The notes under the pieces: generated by a model
The model's database searches: none
What the model was told of the DNA's origin: nothing
The model's input: only the letters and a program-made list of their open reading frames with translations
Part shown: positions 35,208 to 54,699 of the stretch, piece after piece
Layout of the letters: the number at the start of each line of letters is the position of its first letter
How positions within the stretch are numbered: position 1 is the first letter of the stretch
NCBI GenBank assembly: GCA_963775465.1
Contig: CAVZIW010000012.1
Span: 86,568-150,567 of the forward strand
DNA: 64,000 bases
Reading direction: 5' to 3'
Source: Candidatus Bathyarchaeota archaeon
GTDB lineage: Archaea > Thermoproteota > Bathyarchaeia > Bathyarchaeales > Bathycorpusculaceae
Made by a program: the position numbers and the translations under genes

Positions 35208-37766
35208 ATGACAATTAATAAAAAGGAAGCTCCAACAAATTTAAACCCTGGCATAGAAAACGCTCATTCATTAACCGCTGATGAAACGGTTAAAACTTTA
35301 GTCACATCACTTGAAGGTTTGACAAAAACAGAAGCTGACAACCGGATCAAAATATATGGTAGAAATATCTTAGAGGAAGAAGAAACAAGCAAATTAAAGA
35401 TTCTTTTTAGGCAATTCAAGAACGTTTTGGTCTACGTACTTTTTGCAGCTTCCCTCTTAACTCTTATAATGGGCGAATGGACGGACTTTATAGTAATCGT
35501 CTTCATCATTATGGTTAACAGTCTTATAGGTTTCTGGCAGGAGCTAAAAGCTGAAACCACGTTAAATGCTTTAAAGAAACTCACAGAGAGCAAAGTTAAG
35601 GTCATAAGAGAAGGTCAAAGCCTCATTATTCCCTCATCTGAACTTGTACCTGGTGACTATGTAGCTGTTTCTGAGGGTGACTTAATAACAGCTGATATGA
35701 GATTATCTGATAGTACGGGCCTTACCGTTGATGAATCAACACTGACTGGAGAGTCACTTCCAGTCTTAAAGGATCATTCTATCATACTTCCACCAAGCAC
35801 GCTTCCATATGAGCTAAAGAACCTGCTTCTTACTGGTACAGCAATCGTCAGAGGTTCAGGAAAAGGATTTGTAACCAAAACTGGTGTTAACACATATTTT
35901 GCTTCAATTGCTGAAAAAGCCAAAGGTTCTTCTCCAATCAGCCCCTTGGCAAAGGCAATCAAGTACTTCGCCAGACGCTATGTTATACTTTTATTGTCAT
36001 TGTTGTCGATTGTGGGGATAATCGGGTTCTTACAAGGCAGAGAACTATCAAACATAGCATACACCTTAGTTGCCCAACTCGTTTCATCCGTTCCCGAAGG
36101 CTTACCACTAGTTGTAACGGTTGTTGTTACAGTCGGGGCTCTTGCTTTGAGTAAAAAGAAAACTCTGACTAGGGATTTACCATCAGTTGAAACATTAGGC
36201 AGTGCAACTGTAATAGCGTCCGATAAAACAGGCACTATTACTGAAGGAAAACTAGCCGTCAAAGAAGTCCACGCGTTAAATTTAGAGAATCTTAAGGTGG
36301 GGGTTGCTCTCTGTAATGACGCTCATGATTACAAGGGAGACCCCATAGACGTAGCATGCGCCAAATGGGTTGAGAACTTTAAAGAAATTAGAACCAAATA
36401 CAAACCAATATGGACTTATCCATTTGACACAAAGCTAAGGCTGATGGCCACAATAAACGATGTTGATGGGGCGCAAAAACTCTTTGTAAAAGGAGCTTAC
36501 GAAGAACTCAAAAAAATGGCCATAAACTCAGATAAATTCAAAGAACTTGAGAAAGCGCTTACCAATATGGCTGAAAATGGCTTGAGAGTTATTGCAGTCG
36601 GCGTCGGAGAAGGATCCAGTAAATCTCCACTCTCTTGGAAGCTTGAGATAGTGGGCATTATTGGATTTTTGGATCCTCCTAAAGAAGAAGTAAAGGCATC
36701 AATATCAATTGCAAAGAAAGCTGGAATAAAAGTCATCATGATTACAGGTGACGATCCATTAACAGCTAAGGCAGTTGCAGAAGAAGTGGGCATTTGGGAA
36801 GAAGGCAATCAACTGCTAACTGGAAAGCAAATCGAACAAATAGATGACAAGGAACTCTTTGACAAGCTCAAGAAAACAACTGTTTTAGCTAGAATCTTGC
36901 CCGAGCACAAACACAGGATAGTAAAAGTTCTCCAAGAGAACGGAGAAATAGTGGCTGTAACTGGGGACGGAGTAAATGATGTTCCTGCCCTCAAGATCGC
37001 AGACTTAGGAATTGCAATGGGATCTGGAACAGAAGCAGCCAAAGGCGTTTCAAAGATGGTTATTCTGGACAGCAACTTGAAAGTCATAGTAGAAGCAATA
37101 AAGATGGGCCGAGTAATAGCCGATAATATTCGAAAAGTAATATACTATCTACTATCAACCGCTATTCAAGAACTTCTGCTTGTATCATTTGCTATAATTG
37201 CTTTTTTACCTTTGCCACTGTTTCCTATTCAGATACTTTGGATAAATATAGTAACTGACGGTGTTCAAGACAAAACATTCCCCTTCACTAAAGAAGAAGG
37301 TAATGTTATGAATAGGCCCCCGAAAAAATCGGAAAAACACTTTTTTGACCGATCTCAAATACTCAGAGTTGTTACATTCGGCCTCGCAGTGGGACTTGTT
37401 TGTCTCTTCCTTTTCATACACCTGATGGGAAAGTATTCATATGAAATCGCTGTTTCAGTGACATTCACCTCAGTTGTGTTTGCTCAGTGGACAAATGGCA
37501 TACACGCTCAAAAAGAGAAGCAACCTTTCTTCAAGGATATCAAACAGAGCTTAACCATAAACCCATACATCTTCATAGGAGTAGGGATCGGTGTTGTTCT
37601 TCAGTTGTCAGTGATATACCTAATGCCGGGCTTGTTTGACGTTGTTCCGCTTACGCTAGAACATTGGATTTACGTTCTATTTGTAGCTCTATTCGCATTT
37701 GCCATAGTTGAAGCTAGAAAGTGGGTCGAGTTTCTTATTGAAAAATACCGAATGAAACAAAATTGA
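35208..37766 (+). CDS. P-type cation-transporting ATPase (type IIA-like)
   Basis: TGES, PEGL, DKTGT, KGA, DPP, TGD, GDGVND, QILWINIVTD. Confidence 0.95.
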   Translation: MTINKKEAPTNLNPGIENAHSLTADETVKTLVTSLEGLTKTEADNRIKIYGRNILEEEETSKLKILFRQFKNVLVYVLFAASLLTLIMGEWTDFIVIVFIIMVNSLIGFWQELKAETTLNALKKLTESKVKVIREGQSLIIPSSELVPGDYVAVSEGDLITADMRLSDSTGLTVDESTLTGESLPVLKDHSIILPPSTLPYELKNLLLTGTAIVRGSGKGFVTKTGVNTYFASIAEKAKGSSPISPLAKAIKYFARRYVILLLSLLSIVGIIGFLQGRELSNIAYTLVAQLVSSVPEGLPLVVTVVVTVGALALSKKKTLTRDLPSVETLGSATVIASDKTGTITEGKLAVKEVHALNLENLKVGVALCNDAHDYKGDPIDVACAKWVENFKEIRTKYKPIWTYPFDTKLRLMATINDVDGAQKLFVKGAYEELKKMAINSDKFKELEKALTNMAENGLRVIAVGVGEGSSKSPLSWKLEIVGIIGFLDPPKEEVKASISIAKKAGIKVIMITGDDPLTAKAVAEEVGIWEEGNQLLTGKQIEQIDDKELFDKLKKTTVLARILPEHKHRIVKVLQENGEIVAVTGDGVNDVPALKIADLGIAMGSGTEAAKGVSKMVILDSNLKVIVEAIKMGRVIADNIRKVIYYLLSTAIQELLLVSFAIIAFLPLPLFPIQILWINIVTDGVQDKTFPFTKEEGNVMNRPPKKSEKHFFDRSQILRVVTFGLAVGLVCLFLFIHLMGKYSYEIAVSVTFTSVVFAQWTNGIHAQKEKQPFFKDIKQSLTINPYIFIGVGIGVVLQLSVIYLMPGLFDVVPLTLEHWIYVLFVALFAFAIVEARKWVEFLIEKYRMKQN

Positions 37767-38084
37767 AAACGCGTATGAATGTTACCCAAAATGATTATGA
37801 GCGCCCGCGCTGGAGAGTGGATCAAAGATAACAAACAGAGTAATTACAGATCTATCTATTGTTTTTAAAATTTGGCTAGGTTGATCGCTATCCAAGAAAC
37901 TTTGGGATTAATACACAGGGTAGGAGCGTTTTTCAATTCCTCACTGCTGACATTTCCAAGAAAAAGCTTTGATGAACTACTCTTACCTGTGCACCCCAGA
38001 ACAATCAAATTAAAATGCTTATCATAGGCAGTTTAAATATCTCCTGCACCGCATCTCCATCAACCAATAAAGGTTCTTGAGTAC

Positions 38085-38300
38085 TCACTTGTTTTTCTGT
38101 AATTCGCATTTTACTTCATAATTAACTATAACTAAACCAATCACTGTTGTCACCATTCCAATTCCAAGAAGTAGCCACAAATTGGAATTACCAAGATATT
38201 CGTCTAGCAATAGCCAGGTGCTTCTAAAAACAAGTACCGATGCAAAAAGAAGTACAAACTCACCAACTATCAGAGTCACTAATTTCATATCCATCACCAT
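38085..38300 (-). CDS. small 2-TM protein
   Basis: ASVLVFRSTWLLLD with hydrophobic helices. Confidence 0.6.
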   Translation of the reverse strand: MVMDMKLVTLIVGEFVLLFASVLVFRSTWLLLDEYLGNSNLWLLLGIGMVTTVIGLVIVNYEVKCELQKNK

Positions 38301-38371
38301 AAAAAAATGATATTGTGGATATATATTTTTTAAAGAGTGAAATTAGATCAAAACAAAGTTAAGCTCATATA

Positions 38372-38452
38372 GATCACTTACAGGCTATTGGTTCTCAATG
38401 ATACGAGACCCAATTTATAGTTATAAGCTTTCAAATTTTGGAACAAGCCAGC
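38372..38452 (-). mobile_element. IS left-end remnant, copy 2
   Basis: TTGGTTCTCAATGATACGAGACCCAATTTATAGTTATAAGCTTTCAAATTTTGGAACAAGCCAGC resembles 17850-17914. Confidence 0.5.
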
Positions 38453-38497
38453 ACGGCAAATACGACAAAGGGTTTGAGGCCAAAACAACTTTGAAAC

Positions 38498-38800
38498 CTA
38501 AATCGTTACGCTTGACTTTACCAACGCCTCGAGTTTAGGGTTGCTAACGCTCGTGTAAATGATTTTTCTATTATCGAAAGCGATTTTTCCAGAAGCCTCC
38601 AAGTAGTTTAGTATGCGTTTGAAGGTTTGGTACTGCATTTTTCTGGGCAAACTATTCCAGAGCTCAGTTCGAGTTGGATATTCATCACCATGGGAGATTG
38701 CTTTTTCAACCATCAAGATTGCACCAAGTTTTGGTCCATGAAGAACCTCAGTTCTCACAGTCACGAGAAATTCCCTTCTGGCTTGCGATCTTAGAGTCAC
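38498..38800 (-). CDS. small winged-helix protein
   Basis: PTRTELWNSLPRKMQYQTFKRILNYLEASGKI. Confidence 0.7.
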   Translation of the reverse strand: MTLRSQARREFLVTVRTEVLHGPKLGAILMVEKAISHGDEYPTRTELWNSLPRKMQYQTFKRILNYLEASGKIAFDNRKIIYTSVSNPKLEALVKSSVTI

Positions 38801-38978
38801 TTGCTCAAAATATCATACAAACTTACAAAATAATATATGCTATTAGGAAGCAAAGCAACTGCGACAAAAGATCTTAAACATTCAGCGATTCTTTAGGTCA
38901 TTATAGCATATACGTTTACAAATGAGAGGGCCAAAAATCAGCCCGGCAAGAAAAGAAATTATGAAGACAAACTCAAAA

Positions 38979-39956
38979 TTAGTATTTCCGCTTAAGATAA
39001 GCAACCAAACCCAAAGTGACTATTAGAAATGACACGGCAATCGGGAGCAGGATTATAGTTGGCGGAAACTCTGGAATCGTAGGTGTTGGGTTCTGGATAG
39101 AGGATGGCACTGTCGTCGAGAAAGTGCTTGGAGTTGGTGTTGGAGTAAACATTGACTGAACGTTTGAACTGACATAAAGTGTATGCAAGACATCTGCAAC
39201 TTCATTTACAGCGAGGTTAAGGGATTGTCCAGCTCTAACCCAATAAGCAGAATTAGGATTAGAAGTATCATAATTATTATCCATCCAAAAGCAAGTGTAG
39301 ATTCCACCGTCATCAAAGGTCGTGTCATAAGCAAGGTTTTTCGCCGCATCATAAGCAGAAACTGTCGACAATAATCCATCAAATTGCAAGTAGGAATTGT
39401 AGGTATCAGAATAAGCATTTGTTCGGGTCCCAACATAGCTTTCATAATTTGAATGGTTGTTGCCTGTTTCCGCACCCCAATCAGTACTTGCACCCATTAC
39501 ATGAGCAAAAACAGCCATGTCTGCGATATAATGGCTCATTATTCCCGCATTAATTGCAGCGCCTGAAAAATTTCCAACGTTTAGGCGACTCAAGGCATTT
39601 TGGTATTCCTCCGCGGCTCTGACGGCAGCGGCATCATCTTGAAGAACGCCAGTGGACCTAAAGTAAATGTGGTGTTTTGTTGTATCACCTATATGACCTG
39701 GAATTGAAGCATTATTGTTATCTGGAAGCTCTGTTCCATAAAGGTACTTTGCCAAATTGTCGACTAAATACTGCTTTTCGGTTGCAGGCAACCAATCCAA
39801 AGCATGCTGAGCTATCCAATCATGCGTTGAATAAACAGGGTGCGCGGGGTCATTCGAGTAGCCACCATTACTCCAAGCATCCGCCGCCTCAAAGCAAGAA
39901 GTAACCATGCTGGTGATTGCGAAGAGGACAAATAGAAATAGAAGGAATTTTTTCAT
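38979..39956 (-). CDS. secreted zinc-dependent phospholipase C / S1-P1 fold protein with PEF-type C-terminal anchor
   Basis: Signal peptide, mature N-terminal Trp (AWSNGG), THDWIA, HYIAD, HSNYE, T/P linker, IPEFP-TM-KRKY. Confidence 0.8.
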   Translation of the reverse strand: MKKFLLFLFVLFAITSMVTSCFEAADAWSNGGYSNDPAHPVYSTHDWIAQHALDWLPATEKQYLVDNLAKYLYGTELPDNNNASIPGHIGDTTKHHIYFRSTGVLQDDAAAVRAAEEYQNALSRLNVGNFSGAAINAGIMSHYIADMAVFAHVMGASTDWGAETGNNHSNYESYVGTRTNAYSDTYNSYLQFDGLLSTVSAYDAAKNLAYDTTFDDGGIYTCFWMDNNYDTSNPNSAYWVRAGQSLNLAVNEVADVLHTLYVSSNVQSMFTPTPTPSTFSTTVPSSIQNPTPTIPEFPPTIILLPIAVSFLIVTLGLVAYLKRKY

Positions 39957-40421
39957 ACTCGAATTTTCTCATTCAGGTAAATGCATATTTGTGATATTTG
40001 ATTTTTTCCATAACTGAATCTTGATAAGAAAAAACAGCCTAAAACTGATTGTAAATTAATAACTCCTTATCGTTAGAGCGTGCGCGAAAACCTTTCTTTC
40101 TAAGACTGCCAATGCTGTAAATTAAAAAACAAAAATGAAACACTCAAAGGAGATCCTTTGTGGAAATAGAAACCAGATGAACAGGTCCTTTGCTTTGATG
40201 GACTAACAGCACATTTGCTCATATACCGCGAGCAGACAAATATTCACAACTTGATGATATGTAAACAGGTGATTCGAATGGAGCTAATGGATAGAATAAC
40301 GATTAACACCTTCTGAAGACCCCATAACACGATAGGCATACAAACTTTTAAAGTACAAACAAGTCTCCAACTACTTTTTGATGCTTCATGGAGCCTTCTT
40401 GAAATCAGACCCGTCGCCAAG

Positions 40422-40485
40422 CCAATCGTAAATCAGTCCACAACGCCATCCATCAACCGCTAAAGAAATTATAGCATCTACTTTT
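40422..40485 (+). repeat. PLD gene 3' tail, copy 2
   Basis: CCAATCGTAAATCAGTCCACAACGCCATCCATCAACCGCTAAAGAA...CTACTTTT. Confidence 0.75.
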
Positions 40486-41084
40486 GTGAGGGTTCGAGGT
40501 CCTCCTGGCGCTATTTTGTTGAGTACTGAATCACCCGAAGATTTCAAGCTTCGACTAACCTTTCTAACAGAAAAACTGAAAAAAACCAACCGAGCTCTAA
40601 AAAAACCATGAAACGTCCTTTGACCGCTTTTAGTTGTATCGACACACTCACAAAATAATTTTAATAGAAATCACCATATTTTCTTGATGAACCATGTGTA
40701 ATCTTCCAAAAATCCAAACCCGGCACCCAAAAAAAAACCAACAAAAATCCAACGTTTCCTGGCACGCCTGCATATAGTCCTTCCACGAAGTAGCGACACA
40801 GAGAAAGCCAATTCAATATTTTATTTAATATGTTTTTGTTTTCGTAGCATTAGTTCAGACCAATAAGCTCTTCTTTTCTCATGAATATAAAAAAAGAAAG
40901 ATAGCTACTTAGAAACATGCGAGAGACGATATCACTTCACCTAAGAGTAACCTGCCCAAGGTTTTTCCATTTGAAATAATTTTAGGTTGCGATGAATTAG
41001 AATTTAGGTTGTTTAGACAATATACTGGTTTTCGATATTCGACCCTTAATCAACTATTCTATTATTTAAAACTTCCAAAATTCG

Positions 41085-42320
41085 TTAGATCGATGTTTCG
41101 TTTGATTCCTTGACGGCTAATAAGAGAATCACGCAGCCTCCGATTGTAGTTACACCAAGTGCAAATCCTACTTGTCCATATACTCCTGACGAGAGGGCAA
41201 GCAAAACGCCGCCAATTAGTGGCGCCAACACTTTTCCAATGTTATTAAAGAAGCTGTTTAATGAGAATACTGTGGCACGGTACTTTGGCAATTGTTGCAA
41301 AACTAGAACTGCAAAAGCTGGGGCTGCCATAGCTGCGAACCAGACGTGCATCATATCAAATGTGAAGGACAGCCAAAAGTTTGGTATGTAGAAGAAGGTT
41401 GCAGTGAATATGGCTGCAAGAAGTGTCGTAATCAGGGCGATGGGTTTTGCTCCAAATCTGGAGATCAGAGGCCCAGTAATTAGGGGTGCTAAGATAAAGA
41501 TGACAAGCGCTACTTCATAGATCGCTATGGTTTGAGCTGTTGTAGCACCGAATGCTGCTCTATAGAAGGCTATAGCAAAGATAGCAACTTCAGTTCCTGC
41601 TATAGTTAACAGATTAGCGATTATGCATGCCGAGGCGGACTTATTTTTAATGAGTTCTTTAAAGCCGCTTATGTATGGGTTAGATTTGTTGAATTGGTTG
41701 TGCTCAATAGGTTGGGATGGAACTAAAAATAAAATTAAGATCAGCCCAAGCAACGCGACGGGCATCATTAAAGTAAGCATCCCCGCACGCCATCCACCCA
41801 TCTCTGTTATAACGCCGACTATCGGGATTAGAATTAGTGTGACGCCGGAGCCGATCGAGAATAAAATACTAATTATTTTTGCCCTCTGTTTTTGTGGCAA
41901 TGCATCGGCAATTAGGCTCATCGATATTATTCCTATCATTACGCTTCCTGCTCCTTCTAAAGCGATGAATATTTGGAGTGCAAGCAAACTTGGTGCCAGA
42001 AAGCTGCCTATGGCCGAGGCGATTATGAAGAGTGTTCCAGTTAAAAGTAGCCGTTTGTGCTTGAACCTGAGCACTAGCACACTAAGCACTATGGCGCTGA
42101 CTACTTCTGCTGCGACGTTGACTGTGTTGAGCTGTGCGACTGTTGCTATAGCTATGGGTGAGGGCGATCCAAAGAATGTTCTGGCAATGTTGGTTGCAAA
42201 AAGCGTTAGTATAGCGTTTGCTAGTCCAGTTGAAAATATTGCTACGGCGAGAGCAGCGATGAATCTTTTCTTGTAGGCTGGTTGATCGTTTGTATCTTTG
42301 TTGGGTTGCTGGGTTGTCAT
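41085..42320 (-). CDS. MFS transporter (paralog of 49733-50893)
   Basis: ~12 TM; RFKHKRLLL.G...GSFLAP. Confidence 0.88.
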   Translation of the reverse strand: MTTQQPNKDTNDQPAYKKRFIAALAVAIFSTGLANAILTLFATNIARTFFGSPSPIAIATVAQLNTVNVAAEVVSAIVLSVLVLRFKHKRLLLTGTLFIIASAIGSFLAPSLLALQIFIALEGAGSVMIGIISMSLIADALPQKQRAKIISILFSIGSGVTLILIPIVGVITEMGGWRAGMLTLMMPVALLGLILILFLVPSQPIEHNQFNKSNPYISGFKELIKNKSASACIIANLLTIAGTEVAIFAIAFYRAAFGATTAQTIAIYEVALVIFILAPLITGPLISRFGAKPIALITTLLAAIFTATFFYIPNFWLSFTFDMMHVWFAAMAAPAFAVLVLQQLPKYRATVFSLNSFFNNIGKVLAPLIGGVLLALSSGVYGQVGFALGVTTIGGCVILLLAVKESNETSI

Positions 42321-42722
42321 CGTCTATCAACTTGATGCTATCTGAAGTGGTGTTGCATTTAAGAATTGTCGTATTCCATAGGGCGGTTGTCAATTCGTAT
42401 TTTTGCGGCTTATTTCTTGTTTGAAATGATTTTTCTGAGTATTCGGGTAAAAGTCACCTAATATTTTTGTTCTTGCGATTCCCACAAACGGCAACAAAGT
42501 TGTTGCGTCAATAGTTACAGTAAGCAAGGTTTCTTCGACTCCTAGAACAATGATGATTACTGACGGGTAATCCTTTAAAACCACAGATTCAACCGCAGTC
42601 TACAACAACATGCTCACAATCGATGGTACAACATTAAACCGTACCCTTCTTTCTTTTTTCTGTAACCTCCTAAGAAAAGTACTGTCTATTCAAGAAAAAA
42701 AATCAATTAACCAAAGACAAAA

Positions 42723-44870
42723 TCAATTTTTAGCTTCGAATAACCTTGTTTCCTGCTTTGGATGAAAATTCTCGATGAATTTAGGCGTCACTTCCATTAT
42801 ATAATCCCTCACCAAATACCCATCCGTGCCTGGTCCAGAATATTTGGATGTTGGATGCATAAAAGTCACAAACGCATCAAAACCGTTTTGCCGAGCGGTA
42901 AACTTCTCGCCAGAAACTTGAACAACTGAGAACGCTTCAGTTTTAACATCACCGTACCCTTCAATCAACATACATGCAGGCGGAAGAACATATTCTGAAA
43001 CGCCAAGCGAAATTGGCACAGTCCAACCTGCAAAGAGCGTGTTCCCATGAACCCATATCTGCAATTCATTGGTCTTTGCCAACTGAAAATTGCGACCTGC
43101 TGGAGATGCTTCAAAATGTTTTCCCCAAATAGCCCTAGCTTTTAGGCTGTCACTAAATACTGCAACTGGCACATAGGCTGGACCGTTTGTTGTTTCACGC
43201 AACAAGTTAATCAGGATAATATCTTCAGCTCCAAACGTGGAAGTTTTTTCTATGCGATGGGCACGAATAAGCAACGGTGGAAGACCAAAAAAGTCTGGCG
43301 GGTGAATGAGCGCTATTGCCTGACTAGAATAGACTTTGCAGACTCCCGGTTTAGTTTTTGATGAAGACTTGTGAGCTTCAATTATTTCATTCAAAATGTC
43401 TTGTTCAACCAATTTGCCGGTTGGATCTTCGTTTATGATTCCTACGGTACTGTAGCTTTTTTTGTCTTTGGCGTTGGGAGGAAGTGGATGAGCCTTTCCG
43501 TGCGGTCCAGGACTAAGGATAGCCCCCGGAAAATAAGCGCAATGCCCAAGAACACCAGTATCCAACGTTAGCTCAAAATTTTGAAGAAAGGGCTTACTGG
43601 AATTTTTCCAGATTTCCTCCATCATGCTCTTGTTTTTCTTAACATAATCCAGATGGCTAGAATATAGCAAACTATCAAATTTGGAAGAAGATTCGAGGGA
43701 TTGGTTTTCTGAGGAGGACTTGAATTGAAAGAGGTGCTTTCCATCTATGATTGTTGTAGGTGTATAGTTAGGTGGGATATGGCTAACCAAACAGAGCCTG
43801 GAAAGTTGTGTGGCGATTTCCAGGTTTTCACGTGTGATAGGAGCCATGATTTTCACAACAACACCCCTTTCGACCCACTCATGAATGCCTTCTAGATTTT
43901 GCGAAAAATCAGCGAGACCCTTAGGGGAGGCAACAACTAAGACTTCCTCTTTAGCTGACTGCGCAATTTTCTCATATTTTCTTTTAGCTACTTCAATATC
44001 TCCAATGACGAGGGTCTTTGGAGCGGGTTGTCCTGTTTCGAGTTCAACCATTTTTTCTGCCACGCCTGTAGAGTTACGCCATATATCTTCAAAAATAACG
44101 GCGAAAGCCTTCACAAGCGTTTTACAGTCAGTCCAAAGACAGGTGTCATTCTTTTCGATTATAGATGTTTCAATTCGAGGTCTTATAAAGAATAAAACTT
44201 CTTCTTGGTCTCTGATTATCATATGAGGGAAAAGCGTTAAACCCAAGTCGGGGTTTCTAACTTCAAAGTTAAGCTTGGTTGCTTGAAATTCTTCTTGGAG
44301 CTCTTTCATTATGTGTAGATTTTTCTCAGACAATTCTACCAGAAAACGAAGCGGAACATTCTTTTTCAAAAAACTACTGGATGCAGCTTCAAAAATGTCG
44401 CGCTGATTGGCTTGCGCCAAAACAGGAACAGATGTTATTGCAATGAGATTGTCTTTTGTCTCCTGAATCATTTGATAGATCTTTGAATAGATAAAAGATC
44501 TACCTTCAACTACCGTAAACTTTGCTGATACATCATCTTCAAGCCTGAGGTTTTGCCAGTTCTGCAGAATCTCCGCTTTGCTTCGCTTAAGGCTGCGGGC
44601 TTCCTCAATTTTAGCCTCTATGAAAAGATCAATGAATTTTTCAAAGGGTATAACACTGAAACGCGCGGGATGCTCTAAGGTTGAGTTAACGATACCCTTG
44701 CTTTGCAGTCTTTTTATGCTAGGGTAAAATTGTTGTTTTGTGAGCTTTAGTGCTTTGATTATATTGCTTGCTTTCTCCATACCCTTTTTTGCAAGATAAA
44801 CGTAGATTTGGGCATCAATTTCGTCAAATCCAAGGCTCTCTAGAGTCTTTAGCACTTGCTCTTGGCTCAA
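42723..44870 (-). CDS. long TrmB-family regulator 1 (HTH, two TrmB/PLD-like effector domains, ~190 aa C-terminal domain)
   Basis: LESLGF..IDAQIYVYL...LQSKGIV..TLEHPARF; two F/M-E-x-IW-xNS ends; C-terminal FVTFMHPTSKYSGPGTDG. Confidence 0.85.
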   Translation of the reverse strand: MSQEQVLKTLESLGFDEIDAQIYVYLAKKGMEKASNIIKALKLTKQQFYPSIKRLQSKGIVNSTLEHPARFSVIPFEKFIDLFIEAKIEEARSLKRSKAEILQNWQNLRLEDDVSAKFTVVEGRSFIYSKIYQMIQETKDNLIAITSVPVLAQANQRDIFEAASSSFLKKNVPLRFLVELSEKNLHIMKELQEEFQATKLNFEVRNPDLGLTLFPHMIIRDQEEVLFFIRPRIETSIIEKNDTCLWTDCKTLVKAFAVIFEDIWRNSTGVAEKMVELETGQPAPKTLVIGDIEVAKRKYEKIAQSAKEEVLVVASPKGLADFSQNLEGIHEWVERGVVVKIMAPITRENLEIATQLSRLCLVSHIPPNYTPTTIIDGKHLFQFKSSSENQSLESSSKFDSLLYSSHLDYVKKNKSMMEEIWKNSSKPFLQNFELTLDTGVLGHCAYFPGAILSPGPHGKAHPLPPNAKDKKSYSTVGIINEDPTGKLVEQDILNEIIEAHKSSSKTKPGVCKVYSSQAIALIHPPDFFGLPPLLIRAHRIEKTSTFGAEDIILINLLRETTNGPAYVPVAVFSDSLKARAIWGKHFEASPAGRNFQLAKTNELQIWVHGNTLFAGWTVPISLGVSEYVLPPACMLIEGYGDVKTEAFSVVQVSGEKFTARQNGFDAFVTFMHPTSKYSGPGTDGYLVRDYIMEVTPKFIENFHPKQETRLFEAKN

Positions 44871-45023
44871 CTAAACCACCTTCAATTAACAATGCACACG
44901 TTTTAGTTTAAGTTAATTATGGAAGGATTCTCTAGCTACATCATTTGGTCGTATTTTTTCCGACTACCTCGAAAATATCTGGCACGCGACAAATATTTGT
45001 TCAATAATAAAAGGAGAAAAAAA

Positions 45024-45689
45024 ATGAAAAAAAAGATAAATCTCGGAACTGTTTTAGCCTTGTCTCTGGCATTCATTGTTTCAGCTACTTGTGTTGATCC
45101 AGCTTTTGCCTTAGTTACTTACTATGACCATGGCTCCACAGGCGGAGTTACCGTTATCGACATTGCAGAACATCAACCACCCGTCCAAATAACCGTTGTC
45201 CACTATGACAGAGGCGATCACGGCATCGGTGATTACCTGGAGGTCGCTATGTGGCAATTTGTTCCGCCACTTGGCAGATCTGTGTGGGTGACAGTTGCGG
45301 TCGTAACCGACAGCCCCACAATAGCAGCCTTTAGCAAGGATTTCGTTTACGCAGGCGTTCCTGGTGGTCCAATCAGTGTTCTGTTGGTCAAACCCTGCCA
45401 ACTTCAAATATTCAAAATATGCAAAATTGTCTCCGCATACTGGACTGTCCCAATAGAAACCTCAGCGCTGACATTGCCACCCGGCCTATTGCTACTTAGA
45501 GGATATGGGCGTGTTCAAACCGACGAACAGGTATTCAGCTTGCCGAATGGCATAACGTGGACTGTTGAAGCTGCCGCTCTTAACGCACACGCAACTTTCA
45601 TTTGTCCAACATGGAAGTACTTTGGATCTGTCGGTGACGAAAGCGCAACGATGAATATTGGTTTAGATCAGTGGATAACCCACGCTTGA
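45024..45689 (+). CDS. secreted protein homologous to the long-TrmB C-terminal domain
   Basis: AGGAG SD; signal peptide MKKKINLGTVLALSLAFIVSATCVDPAFA; WTVPI, LPP..L..GYG, TF..PTWKY.G. Confidence 0.8.
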   Translation: MKKKINLGTVLALSLAFIVSATCVDPAFALVTYYDHGSTGGVTVIDIAEHQPPVQITVVHYDRGDHGIGDYLEVAMWQFVPPLGRSVWVTVAVVTDSPTIAAFSKDFVYAGVPGGPISVLLVKPCQLQIFKICKIVSAYWTVPIETSALTLPPGLLLLRGYGRVQTDEQVFSLPNGITWTVEAAALNAHATFICPTWKYFGSVGDESATMNIGLDQWITHA

Positions 45690-45784
45690 CTGCCATGAAG
45701 CTACACTCTCAAACAACTTTCTCTTTTTTCTGATTTAAAACTGAGTTAGTTCACTGGACACTTAATAGGGGAGAGCGTGATTGA

Positions 45785-46132
45785 TTGAGTTTAGAATATG
45801 CGATAAAAACGTTAATGAGTTTGGGACTCACACAGATGGACACTCAGGTGTATGTCTATCTCGCCAAAATGGGTCCTCGGAAAGAAAAAGATTTAGCCAA
45901 CGCCCTGAAGATAAACAAAAATCAGCTTTGTTTCAGTATAGAAAACTTAGTGGCCAAGGGAATGGTCAGTATTTCATTTGAACGTTCAGAAAAATATTCT
46001 GCTGTTGCTCTCGAAAAAGTTCTCAATGATTTCATGAAGCAAACAAAACAACAGGCGAAGACTTTGAAGACGAGAAGAACTGAACTTATCTCTACATGGC
46101 ACTCAATTATTGAAGATTCTTCAAGTACCTGA
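45785..46132 (+). CDS. HTH-only mini-TrmB
   Basis: LMSLGLTQMDTQVYVYLAK.G...LVAKGMV; ends after the dimerisation helix. Confidence 0.85.
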   Translation: MSLEYAIKTLMSLGLTQMDTQVYVYLAKMGPRKEKDLANALKINKNQLCFSIENLVAKGMVSISFERSEKYSAVALEKVLNDFMKQTKQQAKTLKTRRTELISTWHSIIEDSSST

Positions 46133-46155
46133 CGCATTAAAGAATACTCGAAAAA

Positions 46156-46383
46156 TTAACAATGTATTATGAATTTAAGATGTTCATTTTCTTTAAGTAA
46201 TTTCTCAAAAAATGGTTTCATGACAGGAATATCGGAGTTAACTGTGCTCCATACCCTTTTCAAATCAACCTCAAAGTGAGCACGGATAACCTTGTCTCGC
46301 ATCCCAGCCATATCTTTCCAAGGAATTTCGGGATAACACACCTTTATTGGAATGGGAATGTTTTTTGTTGCTTCTCCTCGCAC
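46156..46383 (-). pseudogene. HepT/DUF86 toxin C-terminal fragment
   Basis: GEATKNIP...PEIPWKDMAGMRDKVIRAHF; N-terminus missing and the Rx4H His is replaced. Confidence 0.7.
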
Positions 46384-46424
46384 TGCATTAATTATTTCTT
46401 ACAAATTCAACATTCCCGTAAACA

Positions 46425-46491
46425 ATTGACGAATCAACTGTAAAGTCAAGCCACAATACCATCCATCAACTGCTAAAGAAATCTTAACGTC
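46425..46491 (+). repeat. PLD gene 3' tail, copy 3
   Basis: Encodes IDESTVKSSHNTIHQLLKKS* versus IDEPIVNSVHSTIHQLLKKF*; 22 bp core identical to copy 1. Confidence 0.8.
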
Positions 46492-46927
46492 CTCGCTTCC
46501 AAATAAGAGGATGGTTGGTAGCTGCATTTTAGACAATTATCTGTTAAGACATTTTTTATTACAATGCGTAGTAACTGCAGTATACTACAGTTGGGAGCTT
46601 TGTGTGATTTGGCAGAACAGCGTAATAATCAATCAGAGTTTAGTTTTAAATTAGAAGAAGTTAGCAGAAAATTTGAAGAGATACGTGAACCTTTGAAGGA
46701 AGCCAAACCCGATTAGTGACACTTTTAAAGGCACATATTTTTTTTTATTAACCTTTTTCTTTGATAGAACATTCTAAACCGACTCATTAATCATTCAGAA
46801 AAACACTGCATGAAAACAAGATATATCAGACATAGATAAAGCCCCAGTTGGAAAAGTATTTGTCAATTAGGCATCAATATGATTAAGAACAAAAAAGGGC
46901 GAAGGTTTAGAGTGTATTTTCCGCGGG

Positions 46928-47521
46928 TTAACGTGACCAGCCTTTGATAAAGCCAAGCTGATGAATGTACATATTGGCATAGTCTGGCGCTACGAAGTTC
47001 CCGTCTCCAAGTCCGAAACCTTCCACCTGACTCAGTTTCTTAGTTCCAGTCAGTTCAAATTCTCCCTGAGATAGAACATTTTCCGGTGCAAGAAGAGATC
47101 CATCAGGCAACGAATGCCAACCAGTGACCCGAGCCATACCCCAAAAGCTAAGAGTTGGACGACCTGCCATCTTGAAGACAAAAGTTCCTTCACTTCTAAC
47201 TAAAGCGTTTCCGGTGACTGGGTTAAGTTCCATGTGATGACTGGCAACGAAGTCAAAATCATCAGGATAATAATACACCTTATCGTCTATGGTTATGTTG
47301 CAATCCACAATACTGGGATAACTCTCAATGATGACAAGTTCTGGAGCATTGCTATCATCAACAGAAACTATCGTGGAAGATCCAAAGACAATCTTAGAGT
47401 CGAAACCATAGAATTCTGGCTTGGGCTTATTGAACCACCCCGCTTCAGACGTTGCCAACATCGACGCCAACAGAAGCAATGTCAAAGCTACAATCGAAAC
47501 CATTATAGTCTTTCTTTTCAA
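46928..47521 (-). CDS. secreted beta-rich protein
   Basis: GGAGGTGA SD then TTG; signal peptide KRKTIMVSIVALTLLLLASMLATSEA; GEFELTGT...GFG. Confidence 0.75.
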   Translation of the reverse strand: MKRKTIMVSIVALTLLLLASMLATSEAGWFNKPKPEFYGFDSKIVFGSSTIVSVDDSNAPELVIIESYPSIVDCNITIDDKVYYYPDDFDFVASHHMELNPVTGNALVRSEGTFVFKMAGRPTLSFWGMARVTGWHSLPDGSLLAPENVLSQGEFELTGTKKLSQVEGFGLGDGNFVAPDYANMYIHQLGFIKGWSR

Positions 47522-47635
47522 CCTCTCACCTCCCAACAATTCGATAACTTATCCAAATCTGGATTGTCAAAATTTTATTAAGCCAAGAGACTTACATAAG
47601 AATGGACGACTGACAGCGTCTATCACTAATCCAAG

Positions 47636-49705
47636 ATGAAAGTTTTGAACGAGGAAAACATAAAGACAGTTCTCAGCAAATCAGGTTTGACTGAGAAAGA
47701 AGCCGAAGTCTACATTTTACTCGCTAAACATAAAGCTCTAAAAGCAACTGAAACAGCCAAACTGCTCAATAAAGACAAAGCCCAAGTATTCCGAATCCTA
47801 AAAAGCCTCCAAAACAAAGGCTTCGTTGAATCCACCTTCGAATTCCCAGCTCGCTTCACGGCAATGCCCTTCGAAAAGGTTATAGATTCAATCGTTAAGG
47901 CGAAACGAGAAGAAGTCACCTACATTGAACAAACGAAAACAGACTTTCTCAACTATCTAAATAGAAGACGACGAGAAGAATTGCCTTCACTAGAAAAATT
48001 CGTCGTGATTAAAGGAAAGAAGAAAATCTACTCAAAAATAACCCAACTGGTACTAAACACCAAGAACCAATTGTCAGTCATAGCAACAATCACAGACTTA
48101 ATGCTCGCTAACCACTTCGGAGTCTTCGACGCAGCCTCAAGTCACCCTTTTAGAGCAGAAATACAATATCGTTTCCTCACAGATCTTTCCGAACAAAACC
48201 TAAAAGTTATGAAAAAACTCTTGCAAAAAATACCAGAAATACGCTTAGATTTCAAAGCCAGAAATCCCGAATTAGGAGTGAATATGTTTCCAAGAATGTT
48301 ATCTGTTGACAACAAAGAAATCCTGCTATTTACCACGCCAAAAAACAGCAGGATCGAGCGAGACGACATCTGTCTGTGGACTAACTGCCGAGCACTCGTC
48401 GAAACATTTACCGCAGTATTCGAAGATTTATGGCAGAACTCCACAGATATCACAGAAAAGATTAAGGAAATCGAAACGGGAAAACAGAAACCCAAAACAT
48501 GCATCCTCAACGACAAGGAAGTAGCTAAAAGAAAATACGACCAAACACTGCAATCAGCAAAAAGAGAAGTCATAATTCTAACATCCTCAAATGGACTCAA
48601 AAAGTACTCAGAAAGCATTCCGAACTTTAAGAAGTGGGCCGAAAAAGGTGTTTCGGTCAGAGTTATGGCTCCCATAATCGGTGAAAACCTAAAGGTCGCG
48701 GAAAAACTCTCAAAAATCTGCGAGGTAAAACACGTCCCTACAAAATATATAGAGTCAACAATCATCGACGAAAAACACTTCTTTCAGTTCAAACCTGCAT
48801 CCCCAAACCCCGGGATATCACCCCAGTTCAAGAACACATTCTACACTGATGATGCAGACTATGTAGAGAAAATGAGGAACATGCTCAACGACATATGGAG
48901 AAACGCACAACATGTATCTGCAGTCACACTCGACGAGATCCTCAAAAAATCCCGCGCACCCTTCACTCAACCTTCCGAATTACGACCGAGCTACTTCGAT
49001 AAAGTCAGTGGATTAAGGTTCGAAAAAAGAAAACAACAAAGGACAGTAACAGAAAGGGATATACTAAACAAAATTATCGACAATAAATTCAGAAAAGAGA
49101 CTCCTCCTGAAAACCCAATGAGGTTACATGGCACTTTGGGGAGCGCTATTATTCATTCACCAACGAACTTCAACCTACCCGAGATGATGTTTGGGATATT
49201 TCACATTGAAAAACACTCCACTTTTGGAGAAGAAGACGCCATGCTAGTTTATCTTTGGCTTGACACTCCTAAAGGTCAAGCTTATGTGCCAGTTGTATTT
49301 GTAGGAGATAACCCGAAAGCCCAATCCATCTGGAAAATCATGATGGCAGGTACTCCAGCAGGCCAAAACATTCAACTAGTCAAAAAAGACGAGATCCAGG
49401 TCCGAATACACGGCAATACACTTTTCGCCGGTTGGACAAAACAAATTCCTCTGCTCCCTCCAAAATACAGCCTCCCACCCGCATGTTTACTTATAGAAGG
49501 ATACGGCAACCTCAAAACAGACTCCTACACCATGTTCTTCCCCTCAGGACATAGAGCAGAAACAGAACGCAACGGCTTCGACGCATTTGTCACTTTCTTT
49601 CATCCTAGCTCAAAATACTCTGGACCAGGAACAGACGGATTCTTCGCCAGAGACTACATCGCAACAACCTATCCACCTTCAACATCAAAGAACAACTCAA
49701 ACTAG
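47636..49705 (+). CDS. long TrmB-family regulator 2
   Basis: GLTEKEAEVYILL; CLWTNC; FVTFFHPSSKYSGPGTDG. Confidence 0.85.
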   Translation: MKVLNEENIKTVLSKSGLTEKEAEVYILLAKHKALKATETAKLLNKDKAQVFRILKSLQNKGFVESTFEFPARFTAMPFEKVIDSIVKAKREEVTYIEQTKTDFLNYLNRRRREELPSLEKFVVIKGKKKIYSKITQLVLNTKNQLSVIATITDLMLANHFGVFDAASSHPFRAEIQYRFLTDLSEQNLKVMKKLLQKIPEIRLDFKARNPELGVNMFPRMLSVDNKEILLFTTPKNSRIERDDICLWTNCRALVETFTAVFEDLWQNSTDITEKIKEIETGKQKPKTCILNDKEVAKRKYDQTLQSAKREVIILTSSNGLKKYSESIPNFKKWAEKGVSVRVMAPIIGENLKVAEKLSKICEVKHVPTKYIESTIIDEKHFFQFKPASPNPGISPQFKNTFYTDDADYVEKMRNMLNDIWRNAQHVSAVTLDEILKKSRAPFTQPSELRPSYFDKVSGLRFEKRKQQRTVTERDILNKIIDNKFRKETPPENPMRLHGTLGSAIIHSPTNFNLPEMMFGIFHIEKHSTFGEEDAMLVYLWLDTPKGQAYVPVVFVGDNPKAQSIWKIMMAGTPAGQNIQLVKKDEIQVRIHGNTLFAGWTKQIPLLPPKYSLPPACLLIEGYGNLKTDSYTMFFPSGHRAETERNGFDAFVTFFHPSSKYSGPGTDGFFARDYIATTYPPSTSKNNSN

Positions 49706-49732
49706 CAAAGCTCAAAACTTTGAGCAAATGAT

Positions 49733-50893
49733 CTATTTTACGCAAGGATCATCAGTTAAAAAGAAGAAAATGGCTGCTGCGAGTAGACTCAACGAAGCGA
49801 AAGTCAGAATAACCCCCGTATAACCGAATAATACGAGTGTAATTCCACCCAAAACTGCCCCCACACCACCTCCCAAAGTTATGAAAATGCCATTTATAGA
49901 CATCATTGTACCGCGAGCTTCTGGTACCTGCTCAAGAGTCAAATTAGTACTCCCCGGAAACCCCATGCTGTATATAAAAACGCCTAAAAAGCTTAGAACC
50001 AATGCAATCGACAATGTCGGAACAAAAGCAATCAGAATCAAAGAGGGACTGGAAACCAACAAAGTCGCAACCAACAAACGTTTTCGACCAATCTTGTCAA
50101 CCAGTTGACCACCCACTATACTACCTAAAGCAAAGAGAGCTGTAGAGCCAAGAGCTATCAAAGCACCTTGCGCCAAAGACAAGCCGAACACCTGCCTAAA
50201 AAAGGCTACACTAAACACAATACCCCACACAAAGCCTGCTTGCCTAACTAAGGTACCGACAAGACAACCAAAAGGCGATTTCTTCAAAAAAACCTGCTTA
50301 AAACTACTCGAATACGATTTTCTGTTAGCCAGTACCTGTGGTTTGCTAAGATAAGATGGAACACCAAGGTATGCAAATACGAAAGCCAACAGCGAAACTG
50401 GCAGAGCAAACCAGAGCAAAAAGGAACGCCAACTCCCAGTATCAGCAAAAAATAAACTTATAACCAGAGATGCTGCAAGGCCAGCTAAGGGTCCACCCGC
50501 AATTATCCAACCAGTTGCTCTTGGCCGTTTTTTTAATTCTAAAAATTCTCCAACTAATGTGAATGTCATCGCCCCAACCATCACAGTTCCTATTCCCTCT
50601 ATCGGGTAGAAAATCTGCATGAACAAAAAATTTGGAGCCAAAAAACAACCGAACGTTCCCGAAGTTATGCATAATACACCTATCAGGAGGAGTTTCTTGT
50701 GGCTAAATCTGATGCTCAATAGACCTAATATTGATCCTGAGAAAACGGCCGCTATACTTGAGATAGTAACTAACTGGCTTGCAGTGGCTAACGAAAATGG
50801 ATCTGCGGAGCCAAAAAACGTTATCGCCAGGTCTATTAGGAATATTCCTGTGAGAGACTCAATGATCCATGTTGAAAAAAAAGCCAAGGTCAA
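49733..50893 (-). CDS. MFS transporter
   Basis: ~12 TM; RFSHKKLLL.G; DKIGRKR. Confidence 0.88.
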   Translation of the reverse strand: MTLAFFSTWIIESLTGIFLIDLAITFFGSADPFSLATASQLVTISSIAAVFSGSILGLLSIRFSHKKLLLIGVLCITSGTFGCFLAPNFLFMQIFYPIEGIGTVMVGAMTFTLVGEFLELKKRPRATGWIIAGGPLAGLAASLVISLFFADTGSWRSFLLWFALPVSLLAFVFAYLGVPSYLSKPQVLANRKSYSSSFKQVFLKKSPFGCLVGTLVRQAGFVWGIVFSVAFFRQVFGLSLAQGALIALGSTALFALGSIVGGQLVDKIGRKRLLVATLLVSSPSLILIAFVPTLSIALVLSFLGVFIYSMGFPGSTNLTLEQVPEARGTMMSINGIFITLGGGVGAVLGGITLVLFGYTGVILTFASLSLLAAAIFFFLTDDPCVK

Positions 50894-51120
50894 AGATGGA
50901 ACGAAACGTTTTCCAGCTGTAGACTTTTTATTTGCCGTTTCTAATTATCTCAACTTCCTCAGAATTTTCTTAAAGACTTGTCTGAATAACGATAAGGAAA
51001 TTATTGAACGATACAGAATAAATAATTTGTCAAACTAAGTCTGCTCCATCTACTCACAGATAAAAGGATCGACGGTTCAAAGATAGCGTAGATTAACAAA
51101 ACTAAAGAAAACAGAATTTT

Positions 51121-53187
51121 TTATGGCGGCTTAAAGGTCATAATCAGCTCTCGGTTCATTGTCCCATCGGTTCCAGGTCCAGAGTACTTTGAAGAAGGAT
51201 GAAAAAAAGTAACAAACGCATCCATACCATTGTATTCCATCATACTTACGAAGCCTGAAGGAAGACGACTAATAATTATACCAGGCTTTATCTTGCCATA
51301 CCCCTCAAAAAGTATACATGAAGGCGGCAAAACAAATTTTGGAGGAAACAAAGGGATTGGTTTGGTCCAACCCGCAAAACGGATATTACCGTAGGCATGT
51401 ACTTGAAACTCTTCCTTCTTCATCCCTTGAAGATTGTCGACCATCGGGAAACCAGCAAAAGCTGCCTTTAAAGCATCCAAGCTAATTGGGCCATCATGGA
51501 CGAAGGCCACAGGAACGAAAGCTTTGCCTTTGGGAGTATCAAGCCATAACTGCACCATCAGCGAATTTCGAGCCCCGACAACAGATTTCTCATTCCAAAT
51601 AGATAACGTAATTATCATATCAGGTAGATTGAGATGTTTGTTCAGATGTATGACAGCCGATGATTGTTTTCCATATAATACCGCAGTGTCTTTCAACGGA
51701 TTTTTCACTGTACATTTTTCGGCGTTCATTATTTTGTTAATAACTTCTTTTTCCGACACAGCCCTTGGTTTCTCTATAATTGAAAAAAGCATCTTCTGAT
51801 AAGGGCTATCTGGCATGGAAGCCGAATAACAATCATCTGGAACAACCTTTAATCTACTTAATGGTGATTCCGTTAAAGACTCTAAGGTTATTAACGAAGG
51901 GGCATGTGCATTTCTCCAGAGGTCATCTAACATAACCTTCACTCTACAAACATATTCTTGATCTTCACTGTAGAACTGGGCTTTGTAAGGCGACGTAAGC
52001 TCCATCTCATTTTTTGGCGACGTTTCGAACTGGAAAAGAAATTTTTCATCGATAATGGTAGTGCTCATTTGGCTTGCAGCAACATGTCTCACTTCACAGA
52101 ATTTTGAGAATTCCTCCGCAGCTCCGAGGTTATCTCTGGTTATAGGAGCCATAATTCGAACAGAAACACCAAGATCTACTAATCTTTTAATTTGATTTGC
52201 TCTCTTCTTCCAGATTTTTCCAAAATCTTTTCCAGAAGTCATTACTATAATTTCTTTTTCTGCAAAACGTATTGCATCTTCATATTTTTTCTCAGAGACT
52301 TCCAAATTGGCGATTGTACACGATCTTGATGTACAATCGTACTTTTCCATCTCTGCTATCTTTGTGTCCAAGGTTGTTGAAGTTCTCCATAATTCGTCAA
52401 ACACAGAAGTAAATGCTTGGACGAGTGATTTGCAGTTTGTCCAAAGACATTTCTCATTCCATTCAGATCTACCTATTCTCGGTGAGATGAAGAAAAGAAC
52501 TTCTTCATCATCTCGCATTATCATATTCGGAAAGAGGTTTAAACCTAAATCAGGGTTTCTCACCTTGAAATCAAAACCAGTGTTCGCTGCTTTCTTGAAA
52601 AGTTCCTTCATCGGATTCAGTGTTTGTTCTGATAAGTCAGTTAAAAAATGGTACCGAATCTGTTTTCTCAAAGGATGATTAAAAGCTGCATCGAAAACTC
52701 CAAATCTATCGGCACGAGCTAACCCCGAAAATTTTGCCATAGCATAAAGATGGTTCTTAGTTTCAGTTGCCATTTGTGTAATCTTTGCGTAAATCTTTTT
52801 ATTACCTTCAACTACCGTAAATTTTTCTAAAAATGGCTCCTGCTGAACCTTGCTAATTATGTTCCAATCGTTAAGTACACTTTGCTTTGTATTCTCTATT
52901 AGTGCAGTTTCTTCTCGCTTAGCCTTGATAAATAATTCTAGAATCGACTCAAAAGGAACCGTCGTGAAACGTGTTGGAGATTCAAGGGTTGCTTCGATTG
53001 CTCCTTTGGTCTGAAGACTCCTCAATAACCGGTAGACCTCAACCCTATGAGTCTTTATACCTTTAGCTATTTCACCAGTTCTTAGAACCCCATGCTTAGC
53101 TAAAAAAATATAGAGCTCTGCTTCTTTATCAGTAAGCCCAAAACTTTTGAGGATTTTTCGCACTTTTTCCGTGCCCACTTGCACCAA
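51121..53187 (-). CDS. long TrmB-family regulator 3
   Basis: FGLTDKEAELYIFL; CLWTNC; FVTFFHPSSKYSGPGTDG. Confidence 0.85.
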   Translation of the reverse strand: MVQVGTEKVRKILKSFGLTDKEAELYIFLAKHGVLRTGEIAKGIKTHRVEVYRLLRSLQTKGAIEATLESPTRFTTVPFESILELFIKAKREETALIENTKQSVLNDWNIISKVQQEPFLEKFTVVEGNKKIYAKITQMATETKNHLYAMAKFSGLARADRFGVFDAAFNHPLRKQIRYHFLTDLSEQTLNPMKELFKKAANTGFDFKVRNPDLGLNLFPNMIMRDDEEVLFFISPRIGRSEWNEKCLWTNCKSLVQAFTSVFDELWRTSTTLDTKIAEMEKYDCTSRSCTIANLEVSEKKYEDAIRFAEKEIIVMTSGKDFGKIWKKRANQIKRLVDLGVSVRIMAPITRDNLGAAEEFSKFCEVRHVAASQMSTTIIDEKFLFQFETSPKNEMELTSPYKAQFYSEDQEYVCRVKVMLDDLWRNAHAPSLITLESLTESPLSRLKVVPDDCYSASMPDSPYQKMLFSIIEKPRAVSEKEVINKIMNAEKCTVKNPLKDTAVLYGKQSSAVIHLNKHLNLPDMIITLSIWNEKSVVGARNSLMVQLWLDTPKGKAFVPVAFVHDGPISLDALKAAFAGFPMVDNLQGMKKEEFQVHAYGNIRFAGWTKPIPLFPPKFVLPPSCILFEGYGKIKPGIIISRLPSGFVSMMEYNGMDAFVTFFHPSSKYSGPGTDGTMNRELIMTFKPP

Positions 53188-53308
53188 TCCCTAACATTCT
53201 AACGAGTTGTAAGCAACCTCAGTTACCAACCCATTGATAAATACGCAAACTTGTTTAACTTTCTTTTGTCGATTCGAAATCAATATTAAAGAAAAGGCAT
53301 AAGAGGAG

Positions 53309-54112: not shown

Positions 54113-54173
54113 AACCGAAACAATCCCAACCATCTTTTTTTAACTAATACAATCTCAAAAGGACCAATCCAAA

Positions 54174-54551: not shown

Positions 54552-54699
54552 ATCTATAAAACGTATTTTTCGATTATTTTTACACGTAGAGACAACGCAT
54601 TTACTCCCTTCAGGATTTCGTTTACATATTATGCGGTTATCGAGATCAGCCTTTTGACATATAGAAAACGCGTGATAACTGCCCTTGAAGAAAATAAAC

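Follow-up and report, generated by a model that had tools for sequence, protein, structure and literature searches.

As described in the portions of the source on which we draw (PMC4158304), regulators of the TrmB family combine a wHTH (winged helix-turn-helix) with a coiled-coil dimer, bind palindromic sites and control genes that include those of sugar transporters, and they are usually encoded near transporter and exported-protein genes. In Pyrococcus TrmB, the same partial source places six of the seven sugar contacts in the second effector subdomain, a flattened beta-barrel (PMC4158304). Excerpts of three papers also report members devoid of a sensor, namely TrmBL2, MreA and the single-domain TrmB of Haloferax (PMC4158304, PMC9426492, PMC3419521). 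For the LacI/GalR regulators, the part of the work cited here presents the input domain as an ancient homologue of the exported proteins that bind the same sugar, a DNA-binding domain having been acquired (PMC12026503). Here we analyze a locus of a Candidatus Bathyarchaeota archaeon in which a long TrmB-type regulator, P0001, is encoded divergently from an exported protein, P0002, that is homologous to the regulator's own C-terminal domain. The window, that is, the whole stretch of 64,000 nucleotides analyzed, covers positions 86568-150567 of contig 12 of a 2.42-Mb assembly (15 contigs, 92% complete).

Our results define a new domain family, common to a lineage-specific TrmB-type regulator and to exported proteins, within a conserved module. 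The homology, like the existence of the module, is as good as certain. That the locus is one copy of a Bathyarchaeia-specific three-gene module, built around a one-component TrmB-type factor that senses a ligand, is a plausible reading that we hold tentatively.

A domain common to the regulator and the exported protein

The original prediction held that one and the same unnamed domain is found both exported, as a protein on its own, and at the C-terminus of the divergent TrmB, the last ~190 residues of the regulator (estimated as ~515-705) being collinear with the entire mature secreted protein. This is what we find. Both open reading frames (ORFs) lie where it had placed them, and the five motif pairs that it quoted all fall inside one BLASTP alignment of P0001 566-683 with P0002 88-205 (43/121 identical, 40.4 bits, E 3e-8). 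Independent BLASTP matches to P0002 were obtained with the two other long TrmBs of the window, P0003 (E 1e-10 across 174 residues) and P0005 (E 7e-9), and a second exported homologue, P0006, matches P0002 (E 3e-6) and P0005 (E 6e-4). The HHalign comparison that had been suggested as a check was highly significant: with 48 exported members set against 80 fused C-terminal domains, hhalign aligned P0002 31-220 with P0001 512-697 over 181 columns (probability 99.9%, E 1.9e-33), so that the regulator's C-terminal domain and the mature protein, over all its length, are collinear. The homology between the two is far beyond chance.

As had also been anticipated, the domain is unknown to the family libraries. 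Pfam and NCBIfam searches with the C-terminal domain returned no match, and profile searches against PDB sequences stayed at chance level (E at least 0.16 with alignment A1, and at least 0.37 with alignment A3, that of the mature exported protein). A Pfam scan of the 48 exported members at E ≤ 1 gave no recurring family (DUF4179 appeared in 7/48, with a best E of 0.018), a locus search with P0002 alone found no relative, and a 'longer' search with the exported profile, which counts as weak evidence, found none. At 50% identity, the family comprises 443 clusters with E ≤ 1e-3, of which 315 reach E ≤ 1e-10 and 156 reach E ≤ 1e-30, and each of the best 150 profile matches is the TrmB architecture, a fragment thereof or an exported form. 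This genome alone encodes 8 long TrmBs (669-715 residues) that carry the domain and 3 exported stand-alone homologues, as found with a hidden Markov model (HMM) in all its ORFs.

The exported form accounts for 48 clusters of 165-310 residues. The 50 N-termini compared are mostly hydrophobic and end in ...PAFA followed by K/S; the signal peptide was judged by this conserved motif and by the crude in-house rule used throughout this study, which flags the exported partners. In the P0002-type proteins, and only in this 221-residue subfamily, a cysteine is conserved at about residue 23 (window ~45090), within [ST]-[AG]-x-C followed by xxPAFA, which could be a lipobox-like anchor site rather than a plain cleavage signal. 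Other variants of the exported form were seen: P0139, a database protein of 497 residues, begins with a signal-like segment and carries the domain twice in tandem, and the partners at loci L046 and L051 (425-428 residues) have extra sequence ahead of it.

On the regulator side, the DNA-binding part is that of a TrmB. The wHTH of P0001 lies at residues 10-77 (PF01978, 42.3 bits for a cut-off of 25.6), and P0003, P0005 and the short TrmB described below are likewise above the gathering score (52.0, 50.7 and 44.5 bits). Residues 1-115 of P0001 make up the wHTH and the dimerization helix. PF11495 (Regulator_TrmB) matches with 28.5 bits (cut-off 22.2), over profile positions 3-143 of 233 only. The segment at about residues 120-272 has a homologue within the same protein at about 288-430 (hhalign 96%, E 4.4e-9), which means that the first TrmB effector subdomain occurs twice in P0001. 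The second effector subdomain was not detected by sequence, the Pfam matches ending at profile position 143-157 of 233, and after a variable linker the unnamed domain of ~200 residues sits where that subdomain would be. Its profile gives an hhalign probability below 1% against TrmB segments A and B and against the mid-length TrmBs of the genome. P0003 is 42% identical to P0001 across 699 residues, and scores against the NCBIfam equivalogs for TrmB, TrmBL1 and the haloarchaeal TrmB were about 17-36 bits, where the cut-offs are 500-650.

A paralogue of 553 residues on contig 6 (247911-249572, plus strand; L089:2412-4073) has the same core of wHTH and double subdomain, with a CBS pair at its C-terminus. 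The C-terminal position of this scaffold thus takes exchangeable modules, the CBS pair being a classical ligand sensor. From the position of the domain, from this paralogue and by analogy we infer that the C-terminal domain of the long TrmBs may be an input module. The gene of the CBS paralogue sits among housekeeping-looking genes, with no exported neighbor.

How old is the relationship between the two forms? A tree of 54 rows (IQ-TREE, LG+G4), for which one in five of the database fused domains and 18 members of the exported family had been sampled, set the fused domains apart by one branch (support 99/97), with the P0002-type exported proteins in a second group (100/100) and the remaining exported proteins in a third (100/99), which fits a single origin of the fused copies by one fusion event. 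Fused and exported copies that are neighbors are never nearest relatives, and the same pairing is kept in orthologous loci, as would be expected after one ancient fusion or release and subsequent co-inheritance. A recent local duplication as the origin of the pair was therefore rejected, and the pairing is an old one. Exported copies have a cysteine pair (its members in 65% and 52% of the sequences) that no fused copy has, and their Lys+Arg content is 4.9% against 10.2% in the fused copies, differences that fit a long residence of the two forms in different compartments.

The gene neighborhood would make a fusion easy, and the fused copies appear to have a single origin, so the fused domain might be taken for a functionless relic of an accidental fusion with the neighboring exported-protein gene. 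This we regard as extremely improbable: in the 315 clusters at E ≤ 1e-10 the domain is full-length, conservation of its motifs exceeds that seen in the exported family (39% mean column identity against 30%, the former in the 80-row alignment that includes the rest of the long proteins), and 8/8 paralogues of this genome have retained it, without stops.

The module in this genome and in other Bathyarchaeia

The original prediction had described a single pair of regulator and exported protein, accompanied by a transporter of the major facilitator superfamily (MFS). The pair is real, but the window actually holds three long regulators, two of them in a full cassette, and the two-part pairing had missed a third conserved component, a short TrmB paralogue that follows the exported gene (Table 1). 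Cassettes A and C are arranged alike, with the MFS and long TrmB genes on one strand and, on the opposite strand, the exported homologue and then the short TrmB. In cassette B, the long TrmB P0003 is divergent from P0004 and there is no short TrmB; a decayed copy was looked for in 46100-46960, and no remnant was found. P0004 has no similarity to P0002 or P0001; a relative of it is the partner encoded at the C6 locus (E 4e-25). The second MFS gene is convergent with that of P0003 (27-nt gap), an arrangement with a small gap that recurs in other genomes, and it also lies downstream of P0005. In cassette A, the start codons of P0001 and P0002 are 153 nt apart; a longer version of the P0002 reading frame, starting at 44919, exists too.

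Table 1. Coordinates of the cassette features in the window
Feature	Position	Strand	Evidence and remarks
MFS transporter, cassette A	41085-42320	-	Pfam MFS_1 E 2e-30; same strand as, and downstream of, long TrmB A
Long TrmB regulator A (P0001, 715 residues, TTG start)	42723-44870	-	Pfam PF01978 and PF11495
C-terminal domain of P0001 (residues 512-697)	42780-43337	-	BLASTP and hhalign match to exported neighbor
Candidate operator GTCG-N9-CGAC	44948-44964	.	Within conserved block 44947-44968, plus strand
Exported homologue A (P0002, 221 residues)	45024-45689	+	Signal peptide ~residues 1-29; mature part 45111-45686
Short TrmB A (115 residues; wHTH and helix only)	45785-46132	+	PF01978 E 1.4e-11
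Exported partner B (P0004, 203 residues), different family	46928-47539	-	Divergent from P0003
Long TrmB regulator B (P0003, 689 residues)	47636-49705	+	C-terminal domain residues 477-683 = 49064-49684
Second MFS transporter	49733-50893	-	Pfam MFS_1 E 1.9e-36
Long TrmB regulator C (P0005, 688 residues)	51121-53187	-	Pfam TrmB and Regulator_TrmB; C-terminal domain residues 483-688 = 51124-51741
Exported homologue C (P0006, 267 residues)	53309-54112	+	Domain HMM E 3e-59; BLASTP E 3e-6 to P0002
Short TrmB C (125 residues)	54174-54551	+	HTH profile match E 9.4e-30

The same components recur throughout the genome. A gene for a signal-peptide-like protein adjoins each of the 8 long TrmBs, and in 5/8 modules a TrmB paralogue of 104-125 residues stands next to the exported gene. 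There are 25 TrmB-HTH ORFs in the genome, five of them short TrmBs, and all five short ones are located in modules. The short TrmB corresponds to residues 1-115 of P0001, that is, to the wHTH and the following helix (37% identity, E 2e-24).

A pattern scan of species-representative genomes yielded 71 loci, 67 of which are titled Bathyarchaeota or Bathyarchaeia. The other four (L027, L054, L082 and L084, titled Dehalococcoidales, Oscillatoriales, Clostridiales and Euryarchaeota) lie on contigs of 2.6-17.9 kb, in bins that may be mixed, and probably are binning artefacts rather than real occurrences outside Bathyarchaeia. The 71 loci reduce to 54 distinct complete long TrmBs, 47 of them with enough upstream flank to be evaluated. 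A signal-peptide protein is encoded within the first two upstream genes in 36/47 loci; the crude rule flags 17% of ORFs in the same loci, from which about 31% of loci would be expected to have such a neighbor (binomial p 2e-10, with related genomes counted). A short TrmB is found within the first three upstream genes in 37/47, and both neighbors are present in 29/47. The divergent exported gene comes first in 30 of the 47, while nine have the collinear order exported gene, short TrmB, long TrmB; in nine, the partner is homologous to the C-terminal domain. The order of cassettes A and C, with the long TrmB divergent from the homologue and the short TrmB following, was found again in another genus of the same family.

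The claim that the MFS transporter belongs with the pair was borne out as far as gene linkage is concerned. The two MFS proteins of the window are of one subfamily (31% identical to each other), which stands directly downstream of the long TrmB in 12/42 evaluable loci from other genomes. This linkage is not random: it holds in 6/8 loci with a homologous partner against 6/34 others (Fisher p 0.0036, related genomes not being independent). At two other loci of this genome (L003:2575-3171 and L004:6069-6671, both on the minus strand), a multi-pass membrane protein of 198-200 residues follows the long TrmB in the place of the MFS, and one of these proteins has a weak, sub-threshold match to the energy-coupling factor (ECF) riboflavin S component (E 0.0055).

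The exported partners are far more varied than the regulators. Sorting 46 module partner proteins gave 12 homologues of the domain and 34 that are not, the latter comprising the P0004 family (8 members), a third family (7), an esterase-like family (4), smaller groups of 3, 2, 2 and 2 members and 6 singletons. The exported partners thus belong to at least 8 families. That the other families could be remote homologues of the domain was considered and rejected, as hhalign shows signal-peptide matches only. Where a Pfam domain could be recognized, the partner is an alpha/beta hydrolase or esterase, an NHL/SGL propeller or a collagen-repeat protein.

At 90% identity, the regulator core forms 632 clusters, the best 120 of which have lengths of 516-781 residues, nearly all ~670-750, and, where named, bear the database names 'sugar-specific transcriptional regulator TrmB', 'helix-turn-helix domain-containing protein' or 'hypothetical protein'. 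The exported-family profile, which detects the fused domain too, matches 5/60 other genomes of the same family, one per genus, and the fused domain was found in 2/150 other genomes sampled across the class. Within the genus, none of five genomes (all 95-100% complete) has the fused domain, against 8 paralogues here. At the DNA level, window positions 37000-54700, which hold all three cassettes, have only short weak matches in the five congeners, while the sequence from 54706 onwards is common to them at 63-74% identity; the cassette region may be an accessory island.

This patchy distribution, together with the largely missing cassette DNA in the congeners and with a partner that behaves as variable cargo, suggests another explanation, in which the modules are accessory cassettes for surface or conflict proteins (adhesins, toxins or public goods), the TrmB pair being the switch and the fused domain an intracellular mimic, immunity-like or a decoy. 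We think it quite unlikely. Neither the long TrmB nor the exported proteins nor the MFS had a PADLOC match, and those of the short TrmB were sub-threshold. Moreover, the recognizable partners, hydrolases (esterase and alpha/beta hydrolase) and an NHL/SGL propeller, would rather fit substrate acquisition, and the ORF lists, in which no search was aimed at such genes, showed no mobile-element gene next to the cassettes.

Two further ORFs were noted around cassette A. Just upstream of it, a protein of 325 residues (38979-39956, minus strand) starts with a signal-like segment and ends in a hydrophobic anchor, and has in addition a zinc-dependent phospholipase C domain (Pfam E 6.4e-9) and a Pro/Thr-rich stretch. 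An ORF of 75 residues (46156-46383, minus strand), located between cassettes A and B, may resemble the C-terminal part of DUF86/HepT-type proteins, and a genome of the same genus has 70%-identical DNA to 46187-46377.

A candidate operator and the proposed regulation

The spacer between the divergent genes of cassette A aligns with those of two orthologous loci, and the block conserved among them contains a palindrome (Table 1). In the orthologue at L022 it reads GTAG...CTAC, a symmetric double change that keeps the palindrome. Just downstream of this candidate operator, at 44972-44979, a TATA-like AAAATATC identified by eye faces the exported gene, about 45 nt before its ATG. More generally, perfect inverted repeats with arms of at least 6 nt are present in 15/36 divergent spacers, against 4.7 in shuffles, and the pattern AGTC-N7-13-GACT was found in 9/57 upstream regions of 250 nt, several of them near-identical versions, whereas 200 shuffles gave 1.0 on average and 5 at most, and the genome-wide rate is 0.016 per 250 nt. 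Cassette A has a weaker form of it. In the part of PMC4158304 on which we rely, TrmB-family sites upstream of the B recognition element (BRE)/TATA are said to activate and those downstream to repress. By analogy, the placement of the cassette A site upstream of the TATA-like element would go with activation.

In the mechanism that we propose, a dimer of the long TrmB would bind the palindromic site between the two divergent promoters, which in cassette A would be the site just upstream of the TATA-like element of the exported gene. The targets of this dimer would be the operon that holds the exported gene and the short TrmB and, probably, the MFS gene next to it. That the long regulator controls its neighboring operon we consider likely. 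The C-terminal domain would act as the signal-input module and, where the partner is a homologue, both copies would recognize the same molecule or related ones, the exported copy outside the cell and the fused copy inside, the MFS protein carrying it across the membrane. The co-transcribed short TrmB may feed back on the circuit, either by competing for the operator or by forming heterodimers that lack a sensor.

Several observations weigh against this mechanism. The original prediction derived the same ligand from the same domain, and as a general logic of the module this fails, since 34/46 partners are not homologues; a shared ligand cannot explain the modules in general. The label of sensor for the C-terminal domain comes from its position and from analogy. 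What fused and exported forms conserve in common is mostly Pro, Gly, Ala and aromatic residues, together with three Asn and one Asp, and looks more like a shared scaffold than a shared binding site. The fused domains, 39-64% identical to that of P0001 among its 79 relatives, also appear more uniform than the diversity of the partners would predict. Furthermore, neither the strict palindrome pattern nor the relaxed one was found in cassettes B and C, the MFS could not be classified as importer or exporter, every NCBIfam subfamily being below its cut-off, and all cross-locus statistics count related genomes, which are not independent. For the modules with a homologous partner, a ligand shared by the fused and exported copies is possible by analogy; on the whole, it is somewhat doubtful that the C-terminal domain works as the sensor of a ligand which the exported homologue also binds.

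Some of these observations would also be expected of a protein-protein module, working without ligand, that pairs with itself or with the un-exported precursor of a homologue and reports export load or builds higher-order complexes. The mostly structural nature of the residues conserved in both forms would suit it. So would the constancy of the domain while partners vary, and the long invariant, surface-like motifs of the fused domain (SKYSGPGTDG, EGYG and FAGWT), which are the same whatever the partner family. However, sensing of a precursor could fit only the quarter of modules that have a homologous partner, the cysteine pair and charge differences point to a long separate adaptation to two compartments, and the neighboring copies are not co-diverging sister sequences. 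We judge this alternative unlikely. A complex prediction for the C-terminal domain with mature P0002, made without controls, scored 0.02, the mark being 0.32, which speaks neither for it nor against it.

A more radical version would make the fused domain a cytoplasmic 'self-image' of the exported family, engaged in homotypic sensing of an un-exported or re-imported homologue or of the cargo that it has captured. We consider it very unlikely. If it were true, the transcription of each exoprotein cassette would be coupled to the fate of its exported product, and this would be a new kind of archaeal one-component circuit on a new fold.

Very little work has been done on gene regulation in Bathyarchaeia, which are abundant and uncultured. 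Our study defines a domain family that has no Pfam or NCBIfam model and a module, long TrmB, exoprotein and short TrmB, with a candidate operator. This module may show how uncultured Bathyarchaeia link sensing to exported proteins, and could offer handles on the control of exported hydrolases and binding proteins in wetlands and soils.

Comparison with known systems

In the literature on TrmB and archaea, judging by titles and the beginnings of abstracts, supplements apart, we found no description of these proteins. The module would be best filed as a variant of the one-component regulator theme, and three known systems can be compared with it.

The first is TrmB/TrmBL1 of Pyrococcus and Thermococcus, with which the long regulator shares the N-terminal wHTH, the dimerization helix and the first effector subdomain, as well as its location beside genes for a transporter and an exported protein. 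It differs from them in that the first effector subdomain is doubled and the second was not detected, an unrelated domain of ~200 residues being present instead, and it is about twice as long as the 338-position equivalog models.

The short TrmBs of the module, with 104-125 residues, resemble the wHTH-only members of the family in that they consist of the DNA-binding domain and a helix only. Whereas those are stand-alone global regulators or chromatin proteins, the short form is here a fixed partner of its long paralogue, and it is co-oriented with the gene of the exported protein.

The third comparison is with LacI/GalR and the periplasmic binding proteins. RbsR and RbsB are encoded in one operon. 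As in that system, the input domain of the regulator is homologous to an exported protein, here as seen in the profile comparison (hhalign 99.9%, E 1.9e-33). Unlike LacI/GalR, the long TrmB is archaeal, has another DNA-binding domain and shows no sequence relation to them, its ligand binding is something that we infer, and about three quarters of the modules have an exported partner that is not a homologue. If the input domain and the exported homologue do share their ligand, the module would parallel, in archaea and with unrelated sequences, the case of LacI and the periplasmic binding proteins, and new ligand-responsive regulators might be drawn from it.

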